Part shown: one piece after another, positions 1 through 15,263 of the stretch
How the letters are laid out: each line of letters begins with the position of its first letter
How positions within the stretch are numbered: position 1 is the first letter of the stretch
Sequence record: PZ452584.1
Direction: 5' to 3' (one strand)
Length of the DNA stretch: 64,000 nt
From: a phage
Program-made: the position numbers and the translations under genes
The notes under the pieces: generated by a model
What the model saw: only the letters and a program-made list of their open reading frames with translations
Told to the model about the DNA's origin: nothing
The model's database searches: none

Positions 1-1836
<1,836 letters not shown>

Positions 1837-1864
1837 TATTAAAGCATATTAAAGAGGATTAAAA

Positions 1865-3844
1865 ATGACTTTATTATCTCCGGGCATTGAGCTCAAAGAA
1901 ACTACGGTTCAAAGCACCGTGGTTAATAACTCTACTGGTACAGCAGCTTTGGCCGGTAAATTCCAGTGGGGTCCTGCTTTTCAGATTAAACAGGTTACAA
2001 ATGAAGTAGATTTAGTTAATACTTTTGGTCAACCAACCGCTGAAACTGCTGACTATTTTATGTCTGCGATGAATTTCTTGCAGTACGGAAATGACTTACG
2101 AGTAGTTCGTGCTGTTGATAGAGATACCGCTAAAAACTCATCTCCGATTGCCGGTAATATTGAATACACAATTTCTACCCCAGGTAGTAACTACGCAGTT
2201 GGAGATAAAATCACGGTCAAATATGTTTCAGATGCTATTGAAACTGAAGGTAAAATTACTGAAGTAGACACAGATGGAAAAATTAAGAAAATTAATATTC
2301 CTACTGCAAAAATTATCGCTAAAGCTAAAGAAGTCGGTGAATATCCAACACTAGGTTCTAACTGGACTGCGGAAATTTCTTCATCTTCCTCTGGTTTAGC
2401 TGCAGTAATAACCCTTGGAAAAATTATTACTGATTCTGGTATTTTATTAGCTGAAATTGAAAATGCTGAAGCTGCTATGACAGCGGTTGACTTTCAAGCA
2501 AATCTTAAAAAATACGGAATTCCAGGAGTAGTAGCGCTTTATCCAGGCGAATTAGGCGATAAAATTGAAATTGAAATCGTATCTAAAGCTGACTATGCAA
2601 AAGGAGCTTCTGCATTACTCCCAATTTATCCAGGTGGTGGTACTCGTGCATCTACTGCCAAAGCAGTGTTTGGATATGGACCACAAACTGATTCACAGTA
2701 TGCTATTATAGTTCGTCGTAATGATGCTATTGTTCAAAGCGTTGTTCTTTCAACTAAGCGCGGTGAAAAAGATATTTACGATAGTAACATCTATATCGAT
2801 GACTTTTTCGCAAAAGGCGGCTCAGAATATATTTTTGCAACTGCACAAAACTGGCCAGAAGGCTTCTCTGGAATTTTAACTCTGTCTGGTGGATTATCAT
2901 CAAATGCTGAAGTAACAGCAGGAGATTTGATGGAAGCTTGGGACTTCTTTGCTGACCGTGAATCTGTTGACGTTCAACTGTTTATTGCAGGTTCTTGTGC
3001 CGGTGAATCTTTAGAAACAGCATCTACTGTCCAAAAACACGTCGTTTCAATTGGGGATGCTCGCCAGGATTGCTTAGTATTGTGCTCACCACCGCGTGAA
3101 ACTGTAGTTGGAATTCCTGTAACTCGTGCTGTTGATAACTTAGTCAATTGGAGAACTGCGGCAGGTTCATACACTGATAATAACTTTAATATCAGTTCAA
3201 CCTACGCAGCAATCGACGGTAACTACAAATATCAGTATGACAAATATAATGATGTGAATCGTTGGGTTCCATTAGCAGCTGATATTGCTGGTTTATGTGC
3301 AAGAACTGATAACGTATCTCAGACTTGGATGTCACCAGCTGGTTATAATCGTGGCCAGATTCTTAACGTTATTAAACTTGCTATTGAAACTCGCCAAGCT
3401 CAGCGCGACCGTTTATACCAAGAAGCTATCAACCCGGTAACCGGTACAGGTGGTGATGGTTACGTATTGTATGGTGATAAAACAGCTACTTCTGTTCCTT
3501 CTCCATTTGATCGTATTAACGTTCGTCGTCTGTTTAATATGTTGAAAACGAACATAGGACGTAGTTCAAAATATCGTTTGTTCGAATTAAACAATGCGTT
3601 TACTCGTTCATCATTCCGCACAGAAACTGCCCAATACTTACAGGGAATTAAAGCTCTCGGTGGAATTTATGAATATCGTGTAGTTTGCGATACAACAAAT
3701 AACACTCCGTCAGTAATTGATAGAAATGAGTTTGTTGCAACATTCTACATCCAACCTGCGCGCAGTATAAATTATATTACTTTGAATTTCGTCGCAACTG
3801 CTACTGGTGCAGATTTCGATGAGTTAACTGGTCTTGCAGGTTAA
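1865..3844 (+). CDS. 18: Contractile tail sheath protein
   Basis: 659 aa, same length as T4 gp18; position after 17; late promoter upstream. Confidence 0.96.
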   Translation: MTLLSPGIELKETTVQSTVVNNSTGTAALAGKFQWGPAFQIKQVTNEVDLVNTFGQPTAETADYFMSAMNFLQYGNDLRVVRAVDRDTAKNSSPIAGNIEYTISTPGSNYAVGDKITVKYVSDAIETEGKITEVDTDGKIKKINIPTAKIIAKAKEVGEYPTLGSNWTAEISSSSSGLAAVITLGKIITDSGILLAEIENAEAAMTAVDFQANLKKYGIPGVVALYPGELGDKIEIEIVSKADYAKGASALLPIYPGGGTRASTAKAVFGYGPQTDSQYAIIVRRNDAIVQSVVLSTKRGEKDIYDSNIYIDDFFAKGGSEYIFATAQNWPEGFSGILTLSGGLSSNAEVTAGDLMEAWDFFADRESVDVQLFIAGSCAGESLETASTVQKHVVSIGDARQDCLVLCSPPRETVVGIPVTRAVDNLVNWRTAAGSYTDNNFNISSTYAAIDGNYKYQYDKYNDVNRWVPLAADIAGLCARTDNVSQTWMSPAGYNRGQILNVIKLAIETRQAQRDRLYQEAINPVTGTGGDGYVLYGDKTATSVPSPFDRINVRRLFNMLKTNIGRSSKYRLFELNNAFTRSSFRTETAQYLQGIKALGGIYEYRVVCDTTNNTPSVIDRNEFVATFYIQPARSINYITLNFVATATGADFDELTGLAG

Positions 3845-3860
3845 TACGGTGCATTCTAAA

Positions 3861-3878
3861 GGCCTGTTTCGGCAGGCC
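3861..3878 (+). terminator. Hairpin after gene 18
   Basis: GGCCTG-TTTCGG-CAGGCC. Confidence 0.6.
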
Positions 3879-3879
3879 A

Positions 3880-3887
3880 TATAAATA
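3880..3887 (+). promoter_or_regulatory. Late promoter TATAAATA upstream of gene 19 (distal)
   Basis: Exact motif after hairpin. Confidence 0.65.
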
Positions 3888-3938
3888 CACTATATCCTTA
3901 ATTCTTTAATTCTATATGCCCTAGGTTAAACATAGGGA

Positions 3939-3946
3939 TATAAATA
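3939..3946 (+). promoter_or_regulatory. Late promoter TATAAATA upstream of gene 19 (proximal)
   Basis: Exact motif 15 nt before ATG. Confidence 0.7.
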
Positions 3947-3960
3947 CTACAGAGGCTAAT

Positions 3961-4452
3961 ATGTTTGTAGATGATGTAACACGAGCGTTTGAATCTGGTG
4001 ATTTTGCTCGACCTAACTTATTCCAAGTAGAAATTTCTTATCTTGGACAAAATTTTACGTTTCAATGTAAAGCCACTGCTTTACCAGCTGGTATTGTAGA
4101 AAAAATTCCAGTCGGATTTATGAACCGTAAAATTAACGTAGCAGGCGATCGTACATTCGATGACTGGACTGTTACAGTAATGAACGATGAAGCTCATGAT
4201 GCTCGCCAGAAGTTCGTTGATTGGCAAAGCATTGCTGCGGGGCAAGGAAACGAAATTACTGGTGGAAAACCTGCAGAGTATAAAAAGAGCGCTATCGTTC
4301 GTCAATATGCTCGTGACGCTAAAACAGTAACAAAAGAAATTGAAATTAAAGGTCTGTGGCCTACTAACGTGGGTGAACTTCAATTGGATTGGGATTCAAA
4401 CAACGAAATCCAAACATTTGAAGTAACTCTTGCTCTCGATTATTGGGAATAA
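3961..4452 (+). CDS. 19: Tail tube protein
   Basis: 163 aa, T4 gp19-like; two TATAAATA motifs upstream. Confidence 0.95.
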   Translation: MFVDDVTRAFESGDFARPNLFQVEISYLGQNFTFQCKATALPAGIVEKIPVGFMNRKINVAGDRTFDDWTVTVMNDEAHDARQKFVDWQSIAAGQGNEITGGKPAEYKKSAIVRQYARDAKTVTKEIEIKGLWPTNVGELQLDWDSNNEIQTFEVTLALDYWE

Positions 4453-4459
4453 AATGAAT

Positions 4460-4473
4460 GGGGAGAAATCCCC
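4460..4473 (+). terminator. GAAA-loop hairpin after gene 19
   Basis: GGGGA-GAAA-TCCCC. Confidence 0.5.
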
Positions 4474-4484
4474 ATCCTGCTTAA

Positions 4485-6109
<1,625 letters not shown>

Positions 6110-6110
<1 letters not shown>

Positions 6111-6349
6111 TGGAAGGTTTAATTGAAGCTATTAAATCAAACGACCTCGTAGCCGCTCGTAAATTATTTGCTGAAGCCATGGCTGCAAGAACGATTGATT
6201 TAATTAAAGAAGAAAAAATCGCTATCGCTCGTAATTTCTTAATCGAAGGTGAAGAACCTGAAGACGAGGATGAAGATGATGACGAAGATAGCGATGATAA
6301 AGACGACAAAAAAGACAAAGACTCTGACGAAGACGAGGATGATGAATAA
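6110..6349 (+). CDS. 67: Prohead core protein with acidic C-terminal tail
   Basis: 79 aa; D/E-rich C-terminus; position between 20 and 68 as in T4. Confidence 0.85.
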
Positions 6350-6774
6350 TGCTTCTGATCCCTGAAACTCATGAATTAGTTCTCGAGAATGTCGAAGCAC
6401 TTATTCCTGAAGCACAGGGTCGCTTTGACGAATTGTCTTCTGCTTTAAATAAAGACGATATAAATACAATTGTCGAGAATATGCTTGATGATGAAACTGA
6501 TTTAGCGGTTGCATTAGCTTCTATTAATGAAAATATGCCGTTAAATGAATTCATCGTTAAACATGTTTCTGCCCGTGGTGAAATTACTCGCACTAAAGAT
6601 CGCAAAACCCGCGAACGAAATGCATTTCAAACCACTGGGTTGTCTAAAGCAAAACGTAGACAAATTGCTCGTAAAGCTACCAAAACGAAGATTGCCAATC
6701 CAGCAGGTCAATCTCGTGCTCAGCGTAAGCGTAAAAAAGCTCTTAAACGCCGTAAAGCATTAGGATTAAGCTAA
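6349..6774 (+). CDS. 68: Prohead core protein with basic C-terminal tail
   Basis: 141 aa; K/R-rich C-terminus; T4 gene order. Confidence 0.85.
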
Positions 6775-7412
6775 TGAATGAACCCCAATTACTAATTGAA
6801 ACTTGGGGTCAACCTGGCGAAATTATTGATGGCGTACCAATGCTTGAATCTCATGATGGAAAAGACTTAGGTTTAAAACCGGGTTTATACATCGAAGGAA
6901 TATTCATGCAAGCGGAAGTCGTCAATAGAAATAAACGTCTTTATCCAAAACGTATATTAGAAAAAGCGGTAAAAGACTATATTAATGAGCAAGTTTTAAC
7001 TAAACAAGCTCTCGGAGAATTAAATCATCCTCCACGCGCTAATGTTGACCCGATGCAAGCCGCTATCATTATAGAAGATATGTGGTGGAAAGGAAATGAC
7101 GTATACGGACGAGCTCGTGTTATTGAAGGTGACCACGGTCCTGGAGATAAATTAGCAGCTAATATTCGTGCCGGATGGATTCCAGGAGTTTCTTCTCGTG
7201 GATTAGGTTCATTGACTGACACAAATAAAGGTTATCGTATCGTAAACGAAGGATTCAAATTAACTGTAGGTGTTGATGCAGTATGGGGTCCAAGTGCTCC
7301 AGATGCATGGGTAACTCCTAAGGAAATTACCGAATCACAGACGGCGGAAGCCGATACAAGTGCCGATGACGCCTATATGGCTCTCGCAGAGGCCATGAAA
7401 AAAGCGTTATAA
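6774..7412 (+). CDS. 21: Prohead core protease
   Basis: 212 aa, T4 gp21 length and position. Confidence 0.94.
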   Translation: MNEPQLLIETWGQPGEIIDGVPMLESHDGKDLGLKPGLYIEGIFMQAEVVNRNKRLYPKRILEKAVKDYINEQVLTKQALGELNHPPRANVDPMQAAIIIEDMWWKGNDVYGRARVIEGDHGPGDKLAANIRAGWIPGVSSRGLGSLTDTNKGYRIVNEGFKLTVGVDAVWGPSAPDAWVTPKEITESQTAEADTSADDAYMALAEAMKKAL

Positions 7413-7415
7413 ATA
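7408..7415 (+). promoter_or_regulatory. Late promoter TATAAATA for gene 22
   Basis: Exact motif. Confidence 0.7.
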
Positions 7416-7442
7416 TTATTATCTAAACAACAGGACTACAAA

Positions 7443-8252
7443 ATGCTTAAAGAACAACTGATTGCCGAAGCGCAGAAAATTGATGCTTCCGTTGCTCTTG
7501 ATAGTATTTTCGAATCAGTTAATATTTCTCCGGAAGCAAAAGAAACTTTCGGCACTGTATTCGAAGCTACCGTCAAGCAGCACGCCGTTAAATTAGCTGA
7601 ATCTCATATCGCTAAAATTGCTGAAAAAGCAGAAGAAGAAGTAGAAAAAAATAAAGAAGAAGCCGAAGAAAAAGCTGAGAAGAAAATCGCTGAGCAAGCT
7701 TCTAAATTCATTGACCATCTTGCAAAAGAATGGCTCGCTGAAAATAAATTAGCAGTTGATAAAGGCATCAAAGCCGAACTGTTTGAATCCATGCTTGGTG
7801 GATTAAAAGAGCTCTTTGTTGAACACAACGTTGTTGTTCCAGAAGAATCAGTTGATGTTGTAGCTGAAATGGAAGAAGAGCTGCAAGAACATAAAGAAGA
7901 ATCAGCTCGTCTGTTCGAAGAACTCAATATGCGCGACGCATATATCAATTATGTGCAGCGTGAAGTGGCATTGAGCGAAAGTACTAAAGATCTGACTGAG
8001 TCTCAAAAAGAAAAAGTCTCTGCTCTGGTCGAAGGTATGGATTATTCAGATGAATTCTCAAATAAATTGAGTGCCATCGTAGAAATGGTGAAGAAGTCTA
8101 ATAAAGATGAAAGCACTATTACTGAGGGTATAAATACTCCTGATACTGAAGCAGCCGGACTGAATTTCGTCACTGAAGCTGTAGAAGATAAAGCTGCACA
8201 GGGTGCAGAAGATATTGTAAGTGTATATGCGAAAGTCGCATCTCGTTTCTAA
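7443..8252 (+). CDS. 22: Prohead scaffolding core protein
   Basis: 269 aa, E/K-rich coiled-coil composition; late promoter upstream. Confidence 0.93.
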   Translation: MLKEQLIAEAQKIDASVALDSIFESVNISPEAKETFGTVFEATVKQHAVKLAESHIAKIAEKAEEEVEKNKEEAEEKAEKKIAEQASKFIDHLAKEWLAENKLAVDKGIKAELFESMLGGLKELFVEHNVVVPEESVDVVAEMEEELQEHKEESARLFEELNMRDAYINYVQREVALSESTKDLTESQKEKVSALVEGMDYSDEFSNKLSAIVEMVKKSNKDESTITEGINTPDTEAAGLNFVTEAVEDKAAQGAEDIVSVYAKVASRF

Positions 8253-8270
8253 TTTTAAAGGTTAACACAA

Positions 8271-9836
8271 ATGACTATCAAAACTAAAGCTGAACTTTTG
8301 AACAAATGGAAGCCATTACTGGAAGGTGAAGGTTTACCGGAAATTGCTAATAGCAAACAAGCGATTATCGCTAAAATCTTTGAAAACCAGGAAAAAGATT
8401 TCCAGACAGCTCCGGAATATAAAGACGAAAAAATTGCTCAGGCATTCGGTTCTTTCTTAACAGAAGCTGAAATCGGCGGTGACCACGGTTACAATGCTAC
8501 TAACATTGCTGCAGGTCAGACTTCTGGCGCAGTAACTCAGATTGGCCCAGCTGTTATGGGTATGGTACGTCGTGCTATTCCTAACCTGATTGCTTTCGAT
8601 ATTTGTGGTGTTCAGCCGATGAACAGCCCGACTGGCCAGGTATTCGCACTGCGCGCAGTATACGGTAAAGACCCAATCGCTTCCGATGCTAAAGAAGCAT
8701 TCCACCCAATGTATGGTCCAGATGCAATGTTCTCTGGTCAGGGTGCTGCTAAGAAATTCCCAGCTCTGGCTGCTAGCACACAAACCACAGTAGGTGATAT
8801 CTATACTCACTTCTTCCAGGAAACTGGTACTGTATATCTGCAAGCTTCTGTTCAAGTAACAATCGATGCTGGCGCGACTGATGCTGCTAAATTAGATGCT
8901 GAAATTAAGAAACAAATGGAAGCTGGTGCACTGGTAGAAATCGCTGAAGGTATGGCTACTTCTATCGCTGAACTTCAGGAAGGTTTCAACGGTTCTACCG
9001 ATAACCCATGGAATGAAATGGGCTTCCGTATCGATAAACAAGTTATCGAAGCTAAATCTCGTCAGCTGAAAGCTGCTTACTCTATCGAATTAGCACAAGA
9101 CCTCCGCGCTGTTCACGGTATGGATGCTGATGCTGAACTGTCTGGTATTCTGGCTACCGAAATCATGCTGGAAATCAACCGTGAAGTTGTTGATTGGATT
9201 AACTACTCCGCTCAGGTTGGTAAATCTGGTATGACCCTGACTCCGGGTTCTAAAGCTGGTGTATTCGACTTCCAGGATCCGATTGATATTCGTGGTGCTC
9301 GCTGGGCGGGTGAATCCTTTAAAGCTCTGTTGTTCCAGATTGACAAAGAAGCAGTTGAAATTGCTCGTCAGACCGGTCGTGGTGAAGGTAACTTCATTAT
9401 CGCTTCCCGTAACGTAGTTAACGTTCTGGCTTCAGTTGATACCGGCATTTCTTATGCTGCACAGGGTCTGGCTACCGGCTTTAACACTGATACTACCAAG
9501 TCAGTATTTGCTGGTGTTCTGGGTGGTAAATACCGTGTATATATCGACCAGTATGCTAAACAGGATTATTTCACTGTAGGTTATAAAGGTCCGAATGAAA
9601 TGGATGCTGGTATTTACTATGCTCCATATGTAGCTCTGACTCCGCTGCGTGGTTCCGATCCGAAGAACTTCCAACCGGTAATGGGGTTCAAAACTCGTTA
9701 CGGTATCGGTATCAACCCATTTGCAGAATCCGCTGCTCAGGCTCCGGCTTCTCGCATCCAGAGCGGTATGCCTTCTATTCTGAATAGCCTTGGTAAAAAC
9801 GCTTACTTCCGCCGTGTATATGTTAAAGGTATCTAA
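8271..9836 (+). CDS. 23: Major capsid protein
   Basis: 521 aa; high-expression codon usage; UUCG hairpin terminator downstream. Confidence 0.97.
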   Translation: MTIKTKAELLNKWKPLLEGEGLPEIANSKQAIIAKIFENQEKDFQTAPEYKDEKIAQAFGSFLTEAEIGGDHGYNATNIAAGQTSGAVTQIGPAVMGMVRRAIPNLIAFDICGVQPMNSPTGQVFALRAVYGKDPIASDAKEAFHPMYGPDAMFSGQGAAKKFPALAASTQTTVGDIYTHFFQETGTVYLQASVQVTIDAGATDAAKLDAEIKKQMEAGALVEIAEGMATSIAELQEGFNGSTDNPWNEMGFRIDKQVIEAKSRQLKAAYSIELAQDLRAVHGMDADAELSGILATEIMLEINREVVDWINYSAQVGKSGMTLTPGSKAGVFDFQDPIDIRGARWAGESFKALLFQIDKEAVEIARQTGRGEGNFIIASRNVVNVLASVDTGISYAAQGLATGFNTDTTKSVFAGVLGGKYRVYIDQYAKQDYFTVGYKGPNEMDAGIYYAPYVALTPLRGSDPKNFQPVMGFKTRYGIGINPFAESAAQAPASRIQSGMPSILNSLGKNAYFRRVYVKGI

Positions 9837-9851
9837 TCTTTGACGATTTAA

Positions 9852-9867
9852 GGGACCTTCGGGTCCC
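9852..9867 (+). terminator. UUCG-loop hairpin after gene 23
   Basis: GGGACC-TTCG-GGTCCC then T-rich. Confidence 0.7.
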
Positions 9868-9884
9868 TTTAGTTGTTTTTATGG

Positions 9885-9892
9885 TATAAATA
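9885..9892 (+). promoter_or_regulatory. Late promoter TATAAATA for gene 24
   Basis: Exact motif. Confidence 0.75.
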
Positions 9893-12246: not shown

Positions 12247-12525
12247 TCAGAATGTAATTTCTAACCAATCACCATCACGCTGATCACTATTAACTTTAAA
12301 ATTAAATCCTTCTTTTCTCAGCCAATCACCAATTTCTTCAGTAATCAATTTATCGCGAGCAGTACAATAATAACTAAAATATGTTTTACCTTGTTCGGCT
12401 GCTTTATTAGCAAGTTCTGAAAAATCTTTAATAAAACACTCTAGCTTAAACTGTTTACTTTTTAATGCTTTTTCACGTAATTGATTAGCAAAAGATTCAT
12501 TTTCATAAAGATCATACTGTTCCAT
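12247..12525 (-). CDS. Hypothetical protein (position of T4 24.2)
   Basis: 92 aa ORF; synteny only. Confidence 0.6.
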   Translation of the reverse strand: MEQYDLYENESFANQLREKALKSKQFKLECFIKDFSELANKAAEQGKTYFSYYCTARDKLITEEIGDWLRKEGFNFKVNSDQRDGDWLEITF

Positions 12526-12727
12526 TTTTCACCTTTTTATTAATATGTCTTTTTCTATAGACAACTTTTTCTCGAGTTTCAAATTTATTCTTAGCAGTCA
12601 TAGCTCGAGCCCATAATACAGCCACTTCTTTCGCCTGTAAGTTTAATTCACGAGCAATTTCAATGAATGACTTTCCAGACTCATGAAGAGTAAACACCAC
12701 AACCTCAGTTCTCATAATCAATCTCAT
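12512..12727 (-). CDS. Hypothetical small protein, possible helix-turn-helix (position of T4 24.3)
   Basis: 71 aa ORF; synteny; true start may be internal. Confidence 0.5.
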   Translation of the reverse strand: MRLIMRTEVVVFTLHESGKSFIEIARELNLQAKEVAVLWARAMTAKNKFETREKVVYRKRHINKKVKNGTV

Positions 12728-12796
12728 GTTATCGAGTTGGTGCCATTATATACATCATTTTCTGATTGTGTTTTGTGTGCTTTCAAAATGAAGAAA

Positions 12797-12810
12797 GGGG
12801 CCGAAGCCCC
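12797..12810 (-). terminator. Hairpin downstream of hoc
   Basis: GGGGC-CGAA-GCCCC. Confidence 0.6.
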
Positions 12811-12816
12811 TTATGA

Positions 12817-14523
12817 TTATGGATAGGTATAGATGATACCAGTTTCTAAAGCAGTTTTATGAATGATGTATCCATTACGCGATTCTTGAACATCAACTTC
12901 TGGATAGTCTTTCATCATCTTCTGAAGCGTATAACGATGCAGGTAGTATTTACTATCTGGATCTTCAGTTTTCCAATCTTTACCTTCTTCAGTCATTTTT
13001 TGGATTTCATCCATAACCCACCAACCGCACCAGATGTAAGCTGAAGTACGATGTGGAAGAGGATGGACATAAGGTAATTCACCTTCTGGTTCCGGAGCAA
13101 CTTTATCAGTCACTTGAACTTGACCTTCTGCTGTAATAGTTTTGCTATCATAGTCATCTGCAGTAACGACGGCAGTCACTTCAATAGTTTGACTTCCAAC
13201 AGATGAAGTATCAACGGTATATACATTAGTTGATCCTTCTACTGGAGAAGAATCTTTCTTCCATGAATAAGTAATTTGTGCCGGTTCGGGTGCACCAGTA
13301 ACATTAGCTGTAAATGTAGCCGAAGCATCTTGTTGAACGTTAATAGAAGGAGGAGTCAATGTAACCTGTGGATTCATTGTCTTCTTATTAACCGTTAATG
13401 ATACTTCATTAGAAGTAACTGTTTTTGCGTCATAATCCGTTGCTGTTACTTGGGCTACGCATTTAATTCTTTTTACTCCAACTGCAGTAGGAGTATAGCT
13501 AAATGTAGCGGAAGTTGCTTCACTAATTTGTGAATCATCTACATACCACTGATACGTAGCAGATGCTCCATCAGGTTGAGAAGCTAAAGCGGCGGTAAAT
13601 TCAACAGCTGTTCCAATTACTCCGGCAACAGGATTAGCAGGAGTTACAGCTAAGGTGGTCGTTTGTGTTTTCTTGTTAACAGTCAAAGATACTTCATTCG
13701 AAGTAACTTCCTTTTCATTGTAATTTTCTGCAGTTACTTGGGCTACGCATTTAATTCTTTTTACTCCACTTGTAGTTGGAGTGTAATTGAACGTAGCATT
13801 AGTTTCTCCAATAACTTGAGAACTGTCAACATACCATTTATATGTAGCAGACGCTCCAACGGGTCGAGAAGCTAAGGCAGCAGTAAATTGAACTGGGGTT
13901 CCAATTACTGCTGCTGGAGGACTATCAGGAGTTACTGCCAAAGTAGTTGTCTGCTCCTTTTTATTAACAGTCAGTGATACTTCATTAGAAGTAACGCTTA
14001 GTGCATCATAATCTGTCGCAGTTACTTGAGCCACACACTTAATTTTTTTAACTCCGCTTGTGGCAGGAGTGTAATTGAATGTAGCGCTAGTTGCTTCGTC
14101 CACAGGAGAACCGTCAACGTACCACTGGTATGTGGCGTTTGCACCAGATGGCTGCGAAGCTAAAGCGGCTGTAAATTGAACAGCTGTTCCGATTACTCCA
14201 GCGTCAGGGCTATTAGGAGTTACAGCTAAGGTGGTCGTTTGTGTCTTATTTTGAACTGTGATAGTTGTAGAAGCTTCTGCTGTTTCAGCTTCAGCTTCTG
14301 GAACTGTATTTGTTGCAACTACTTTAATAGTTTTTTGTCCAGCAGGCCCCTTTAATACATAATTAAAAGTTGCTTCAGCTCCATCTTGTGGAACATTATC
14401 TACGCTCCAAGCATAGGTAATAGTTCCACCTTCAGTTTGACCACTGGGTGCAGCAGTAAACTGCTTGGTTTCATCAATAACCCCTGTAGGTGTTTTAGGA
14501 GTTATATCAACTGTAAAAGTCAT
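12817..14523 (-). CDS. hoc: Hoc, highly immunogenic outer capsid protein with five Ig-like repeats
   Basis: 568 aa; N- and C-terminal regions match T4 Hoc; three near-identical ~96-aa Ig-like repeats visible. Confidence 0.92.
   Translation of the reverse strand: MTFTVDITPKTPTGVIDETKQFTAAPSGQTEGGTITYAWSVDNVPQDGAEATFNYVLKGPAGQKTIKVVATNTVPEAEAETAEASTTITVQNKTQTTTLAVTPNSPDAGVIGTAVQFTAALASQPSGANATYQWYVDGSPVDEATSATFNYTPATSGVKKIKCVAQVTATDYDALSVTSNEVSLTVNKKEQTTTLAVTPDSPPAAVIGTPVQFTAALASRPVGASATYKWYVDSSQVIGETNATFNYTPTTSGVKRIKCVAQVTAENYNEKEVTSNEVSLTVNKKTQTTTLAVTPANPVAGVIGTAVEFTAALASQPDGASATYQWYVDDSQISEATSATFSYTPTAVGVKRIKCVAQVTATDYDAKTVTSNEVSLTVNKKTMNPQVTLTPPSINVQQDASATFTANVTGAPEPAQITYSWKKDSSPVEGSTNVYTVDTSSVGSQTIEVTAVVTADDYDSKTITAEGQVQVTDKVAPEPEGELPYVHPLPHRTSAYIWCGWWVMDEIQKMTEEGKDWKTEDPDSKYYLHRYTLQKMMKDYPEVDVQESRNGYIIHKTALETGIIYTYP
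13375..14238 (-). repeat. Three tandem ~288-bp repeats encoding Ig-like domains within hoc
   Basis: DNA repeat units visibly similar; protein units begin TTTLAVTP. Confidence 0.85.
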
Positions 14524-15213: not shown

Positions 15214-15226
15214 AATATTTCCTCAG

Positions 15227-15234
15227 TATAAATA
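15227..15234 (+). promoter_or_regulatory. Late promoter TATAAATA for uvsW
   Basis: Exact motif 30 nt before ATG. Confidence 0.7.
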
Positions 15235-15263
15235 TAGATATATTTATTACATGGTATTTAGAC

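Follow-up and report, generated by a model that had tools for sequence, protein, structure and literature searches.

The window analyzed here, a 64,000-nucleotide stretch of phage DNA (sequence record PZ452584.1), carries a hoc gene in which a unit found once in T4 is present in three tandem copies. It is very probable that this gene is a long hoc allele made of old, recombining paralogous units, and that it represents one of three standing classes with one, two, or three units, which are long established and found together in the gene pool of Tequatrovirus. The feature is real and is neither an artefact, nor recent, nor unique, and what follows is mostly clarification: the observation made in the original prediction was confirmed and its interpretation was supported in part. 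The gene and its parts are as follows.

12817-14523, minus strand: hoc coding sequence, long (three-unit) allele, 568 aa plus stop codon (ORF translation).
14242-14523, minus strand: domain 1 (D1), aa 1-94, N-terminal Ig-like domain (aligned to T4 Hoc aa 1-94).
13954-14241, minus strand: unit R1, aa 95-190, Ig/PKD-like domain of the T4 domain 2 type (repeat finders, T4 alignment; Pfam PKD at 99-158).
13666-13953, minus strand: unit R2, aa 191-286, Ig/PKD-like domain of the T4 domain 2 type (repeat finders, T4 alignment).
13378-13665, minus strand: unit R3, aa 287-382, Ig/PKD-like domain of the T4 domain 2 type (repeat finders, T4 alignment).
13102-13377, minus strand: last Ig-like domain (DL), aa 383-474, the counterpart of domain 3 in T4 (aligned to T4 aa 191-282; Pfam Ig_3/I-set at 385-469).
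12820-13101, minus strand: predicted C-terminal capsid-binding domain (CT), aa 475-568, equivalent to T4 domain 4 (homology).
12795-12812, minus strand: terminator-like GC hairpin (AAGGGGCTTCGGCCCCTT) followed by a T-run, 5 nt past the hoc stop (a candidate from a consensus scan).

The 568-aa protein matches PHROG 1149 ('Hoc-like head decoration') with an E value of 1e-169, and a phmmer search of the PDB returned T4 Hoc (5vf3_Z, E 1.4e-225), with window residues 285-568 aligned to T4 residues 93-376. Comparison of the window ORFs with the T4 annotation revealed that the T4 order is kept around hoc, with inh upstream and 24.3, 24.2, and rnlB downstream, and the gene occupies the T4-type head-gene position of Hoc (inh - hoc - 24.3 - 24.2 - rnlB - gene 24). 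The 24 kb around hoc are ~96.8% identical to T2 and to many other Tequatrovirus genomes, indicating a T4-like phage as the source of the window. The PHROG and PDB matches and the gene order identify the gene as hoc, predicted to encode the head decoration protein Hoc of a T4-like phage (Tequatrovirus), in agreement with the original prediction. Hoc of T4-like phages is non-essential and is dispensable for growth. The closest allele is that of Escherichia phage A6-6, with which the window is colinear over 7679 bp without a gap. Between these two genomes, identity drops locally in the Ig-coding part of hoc, to 90-95% versus 96-99% in the flanks.

A terminator is annotated beneath the hoc match in some related records. 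Upstream of inh/hoc, a search of the minus strand found no perfect T4 late promoter (TATAAATA), and only a 7/8 match was seen by eye. In the window as a whole, this octamer occurs 19 times versus 8.6 times expected from shuffles, with a concentration upstream of plus-strand head and tail genes (1829-9892). ARAGORN detected no tRNA genes in the 64-kb window. The 24.3 homolog adjoining hoc (12512-12727, minus strand) encodes 71 aa; PST, PP01, and T2 have a version of 67 aa (204 bp), and T4 has one of 56 aa (171 bp). The gap between inh and uvsW is only ~50 bp in the window (15214-15263). The homing endonuclease gene segE is situated between these two genes in T4 and PST, and is absent from the window, A6-6, and T2.

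T4 hoc comprises 1131 bp and encodes 376 aa (NC_000866), and the difference of 192 aa between the two proteins is exactly 2 × 96 aa. By alignment to T4 Hoc, the excess consists of two additional ~96-aa units, and both this and the lengths of the two ORFs are as originally described. Tandem Repeats Finder reported a period of 288 bp and a copy number of 3.0 (13378-14244; 74% matches, score 938), and a gapless repeat finder gave three in-register copies with 76-77% identity. An array of this kind in hoc is far beyond chance. In the protein register the three 288-bp copies occupy 13378-14241; the array had been placed at 13375-14238, so that the array itself is real and its limits were shifted by one codon. 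Each unit starts with QTTTLAVTP and ends with VSLTVNKK(E/T), and the complete motif QTTTLAVTP...VSLTVNKK occurs three times in window Hoc and once in T4. The alignment gives the order D1-R1-R2-R3-DL-CT for the window, versus D1-R-DL-CT for T4 and D1-R-R-DL-CT for PP01.

Pfam recognizes PKD domains in three stretches of window Hoc, in addition to the Ig_3/I-set match in the last Ig-like domain. D1 is 39-42% identical to the repeat units, and D1 and the last Ig-like domain together show 30-42% identity to them with z ≥ 8.7 relative to shuffles, which indicates that all five Ig-like domains are paralogous and arose by nested duplications. In an AlphaFold2 model built on 30 homologs, five all-beta domains were predicted across residues 1-472 with pLDDT mostly ~85-95; D1 is all-beta (pLDDT ~79-91) and the last Ig-like domain is beta (pLDDT ~84-92). 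A Foldseek search with the whole five-domain model returned only generic multi-Ig proteins with low global TM-scores, because the string of domains is flexible. On the modeled structure, the search confirms the Ig fold and is uninformative on specific function. Pfam, AlphaFold2, and Foldseek thus agree on an N-terminal string of Ig-like beta-sandwich domains, and the original count of five is upheld by Pfam, the structure prediction, and the mutual paralogy of the domains. From sequence and model, window Hoc is predicted to comprise five Ig-like domains and a C-terminal anchor, that is, two Ig-like domains more than T4 Hoc. The protein is acidic as a whole (pI 4.65). R2 (13666-13953) is the sole non-acidic domain, with pI 8.06 and a net charge of +0.8, versus pI 4.05-5.08 for the remaining five.

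The C-terminal domain is homologous to that of T4 Hoc (residues ~281-376) and matches PHROG 21694 at aa 504-568 (E 1.8e-41). Its DNA is 95-97% identical to that of T4, PP01, EC101, and A6-6, with dN of 0.000-0.009 (95% and 0.009 for T4), and nearly all of its columns are invariant in the 30 homologs, including W497, W500, and W501. AlphaFold2 modeled this domain as helices and short strands with low confidence (pLDDT 44-64), despite a sequence nearly identical to that of the solved T4 domain. Since the anchor domain is nearly unchanged from T4, the same mode of capsid attachment is expected.

The units had been described as similar at the DNA level. The similarity is real and moderate: pairwise identities among R1, R2, and R3 are 72.2%, 76.7%, and 77.1% in DNA, and 76-81% in protein. 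By the Nei-Gojobori method, dS between units is 0.87-1.58, which is near saturation, and dN/dS is 0.11-0.17, although this divergence gives no strict date for the expansion, because an unequal crossover of already diverged alleles would produce diverged units at once. Between the window and other phages, dS of the corresponding parts of hoc is 0.04-0.56. The closest counterparts of R1 are R1 of A6-6 (91%) and R1 of EC101/JK08 (89%); those of R2 are R2 of A6-6 (97%) and R2 of PP01 (89%); and those of R3 are R3 of A6-6 (94%), R2 of EC101 (91%), and the single unit of T4 (88%, dS 0.27), R3 being the window unit nearest to domain 2 of T4. Each window unit thus has a counterpart of 88-97% identity in another phage, versus 72-77% identity to its own neighbors. 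The units of a young repeat would be near-identical, with little synonymous divergence, and would be closest to each other within their own genome; the units in the window are neither. These data point to old paralogs under purifying selection.

The array had been attributed to recent duplication by unequal recombination, that is, to two extra units gained recently in the lineage of the window from a single-unit, T4-like hoc. The units are indeed clearly homologous and in perfect 288-bp register, and gain or loss of whole units does occur in the hoc family, as in EC101 versus JK08. However, the moderate DNA identity, the near-saturated dS, and the closer counterparts in other phages indicate that the array did not arise by a recent duplication, and the longest exact in-register runs between units are only 14, 27, and 36 nt. 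A recent origin in this lineage is therefore given very little probability; it was rejected on the dS values and the cross-phage identities of the units.

A megablast search of hoc against 50,697 phage records gave 657 records with a match. Sizes were taken from an evenly spaced sample of 60 rows and from cluster representatives, which is short of a full count. Among the 52 full-length genes sampled, hoc spans 1131 bp (one unit) in 34, 1419 bp (two units) in 16, and 1707 bp (three units) in two. At least five records contain a 1707-bp hoc encoding 568 aa with an intact ORF (A6-6, EC101, vB-Eco-KMB26, UGKSEcP1, and YUEEL01). In a search of 5.8 billion proteins, the best 120 cluster representatives included 76 of 376 aa, 29 of 472 aa, and nine of 567-570 aa; a fourth size class (≥664 aa) was absent from these 120, where any longer allele should have ranked first. 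Alleles of 568 aa are already annotated as Hoc in GenBank, and the best protein match to window Hoc is 95% identical. By these comparisons the sequence of the window allele appears to be new, while its three-unit class is already known. The occurrence of the three-unit form in other phages indicates that the array predates the window genome and belongs to a standing class of alleles. Variation of Hoc domain number among T4-like phages has been reported (PMC10385173; PMC13435897). An explicit description of the 1/2/3-unit polymorphism of domain 2 in Tequatrovirus, or of its mosaicism, was not found in the literature searched, and these may be undescribed.

The original prediction also raised the concern that the assembly had collapsed or expanded the repeat. 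Tandem repeats are notorious for causing misassembly, and reads from a mixed phage population could in theory be joined into a chimera if several hoc alleles were present in the lysate. Nevertheless, approximately one base in four differs between the units, so that short reads are placed uniquely and an assembler would not confuse them. Furthermore, the reading frame is intact over all junctions, the 567-570-aa architecture recurs in five independently sequenced phages and in the nine protein clusters among the best 120, and the colinearity with A6-6 is uninterrupted. An assembly artefact was rejected on the ~25% divergence of the units, the intact frame, and the equal length in independent genomes; judged from these sequences, it is very unlikely, to the point of being negligible, and the concern was unwarranted.

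P0105 (567 aa, 24 member sequences) represents a different class of five-Ig Hoc alleles with 69% overall identity to the window protein. Its first unit is of the window type, its units 2 and 3 and its last Ig-like domain are much more diverged, and its N-terminal domain and C-terminal anchor are nearly identical to those of the window, indicating that longer Hoc forms exist with units of very different ages. The hoc region of Yersinia phage PST (KF208315, 3001-4420; 1420 nt) is frame-shifted near its 5′ end, and as a result the deposited CDS is annotated only from an internal start (3491-4420); this record probably contains either a sequencing error or a pseudogene. In T2 (LC348380), the hoc region (12937-13793) is annotated as two short hypothetical ORFs with no intact gene, which fits with T2 not being known to possess a functional Hoc.

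Segment-by-segment tabulation revealed that the variable parts of the unit (head, aa 10-14; aa 20-22; middle, aa 44-54; aa 60-67; tail, aa 76-83) are combined in many ways, differing between unit positions and between phages. Because the units are mosaic, their hierarchical clustering into discrete types gave no clean position-specific clusters. The heads are position-specific, with DSPPA in R2 and (A/V)NPxA in R3 in all 13 three-unit alleles examined, while the bodies are not. In 48-nt windows compared with the EC101 units, nt 1-48 of window R3 best match R3 of EC101 (88%), and nt 49-288 match R2 of EC101 (88-98%); the tail of window R2 resembles R3 of EC101 (90-98%). The arrangement and heads common to the 13 alleles are further evidence against a recent duplication in the lineage of the window, and the position-specific heads argue for a single origin of the three-unit arrangement.

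Change in copy number is seen between EC101 (OL310488, 301-2007; three units) and JK08 (LR877332, 301-1719; two units). Over R1, the last unit, and the following Ig-like domain, 852 nt in total, the two alleles have no mismatch, and they differ by one exact 288-bp unit with a junction within 6 nt of the unit start. D1 differs at 36 of 282 nt, and hence the two alleles are also recombinant. The comparison points to a recent loss or gain of a whole unit, and such a clean one-unit indel indicates that copy number is still changing in the population. Taken with the mosaic units, it makes unequal in-register exchange a plausible general mode of change in the hoc family; the part of the original proposal that had this process produce the window array recently is not sustained.

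It could also be supposed that the array was assembled, possibly lately, by unequal crossover of already diverged alleles during co-infection, such as a two-unit and a one-unit allele, in which case the divergence of the units would be that of the alleles and not the age of the array. T-even phages recombine at high frequency in mixed infections, and the hoc locus is heavily mosaic. In addition, R3 is nearest to the single unit of T4, at 88% identity and dS 0.27, and R1 is nearest to the first units of two-unit alleles (87-89%), as this reading would have it. On the other hand, the arrangement is common to A6-6, which is 93% identical over the whole gene, and, with bodies permuted, to the EC101 group. 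The units at corresponding positions in A6-6 and the EC101 group are diverged by dS 0.3-0.5, indicating that the three-unit state predates the split of these alleles, and the heads of R2 and R3 in the 13 alleles point to one origin. We therefore regard assembly from diverged alleles in this manner as unlikely, and an old three-unit class with recombining units as the preferred reading. In that reading, homologous recombination would continually re-assort units, among phages infecting the same cell as well as from one unit position to another, and whole units would occasionally be gained or lost through in-register events.

In T4, Hoc forms a 180-Å fiber whose C-terminal domain binds the center of the gp23* hexamer, with 155 copies per head, and Escherichia coli surfaces are bound by its Ig-like domains, especially the second and third (PMC10385173). 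Homologs of Hoc have from one to 10 Ig domains (PMC10385173). By analogy with T4, from which capsid binding and occupancy of window Hoc are inferred, the conserved C-terminal domain would anchor one monomer at the center of each hexamer of the major capsid protein, and the N-terminal Ig-like string would project from the capsid as a fiber with D1 probably at its distal tip. With domain 2 of T4 tripled as 96-aa units, the string would contain five Ig-like domains instead of three, and each capsid site might display three domain 2 surfaces rather than one. Estimated from the size of an Ig domain, the fiber would be ~8-10 nm longer than that of T4, and a longer reach with more binding sites may affect adhesion to mucus or bacteria; unit number may thereby tune surface binding, as the original prediction suggested. 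In phage PNJ-9, binding of MUC2 was mapped to S183-L184-T185 in domain 2 (PMC11853027), which corresponds to SLT of the VSLTVNKK strand. SLT is present in all three units of window Hoc (aa 183-185, 279-281, and 375-377), as it is in 178 of the 180 units surveyed; this is a match in sequence, and the evidence for binding comes from another phage. It is a matter of speculation that three copies of SLT might raise the valency of MUC2 binding.

More tentatively, the domain 2 array might be a cassette system. Balancing or diversifying selection would maintain the three lengths together with freely re-assorting segments, the target of selection being capsid-surface binding or the antibodies to be evaded, and near-saturated dS between neighbors would be favored since it shields the array from deletion by active phage recombination. 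If this were true, fiber length and unit composition would be ecologically tuned traits and not neutral variation; we consider this combination of proposals possible but rather doubtful.

Hoc underlies the 'bacteriophage adherence to mucus' (BAM) model and is the main display scaffold in the engineering of T4 nanoparticles and vaccines. A natural five-Ig allele would imply that the capsid site tolerates a fiber ~50% longer, by the length estimated here, and that domain 2 can be multiplied. The three natural lengths of Hoc are a ready series for relating mucus adherence, aggregation, and immunogenicity to length and valency.

Window Hoc resembles T4 Hoc (NP_049793; PDB 5vf3, 8t1x) in its position between inh and 24.3, in domain 1, the last Ig-like domain, and the C-terminal domain, and in the type of domain 2. 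It differs from T4 Hoc in having this domain three times instead of once, and hence 568 versus 376 aa, ~61 versus 40 kDa, and a predicted five versus three Ig-like domains. In length, architecture, and the possession of three units in register, it is like Hoc of the Escherichia phages A6-6, EC101, vB-Eco-KMB26, UGKSEcP1, and YUEEL01. A6-6 is 93.3% identical to the window over the whole of hoc and colinear with it over 7.7 kb, whereas the window and the EC101 group differ by a swap of bodies between units 2 and 3, with the heads staying in position. The 472-aa alleles (PP01, RB27, JK08, PST, and many others) belong to the same family and share the repeated unit. The first of their units resembles R1 of the window in type, and the second is a mosaic of the R2 and R3 types; unlike the window allele they are one unit short, JK08 being EC101 minus exactly one unit.

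Hoc of Serratia phage Muldoon has 10 Ig domains, that of Klebsiella phage PMBT63 has one extra, and that of PNJ-9 is without domain 3 (PMC10385173; PMC13435897; PMC11853027). These proteins share with window Hoc a conserved C-terminal anchor and a variable string of Ig-like domains. However, their domains have diverged much further from one another, whereas in Tequatrovirus a single recognizable unit is polymorphic at one, two, or three copies within one genus.
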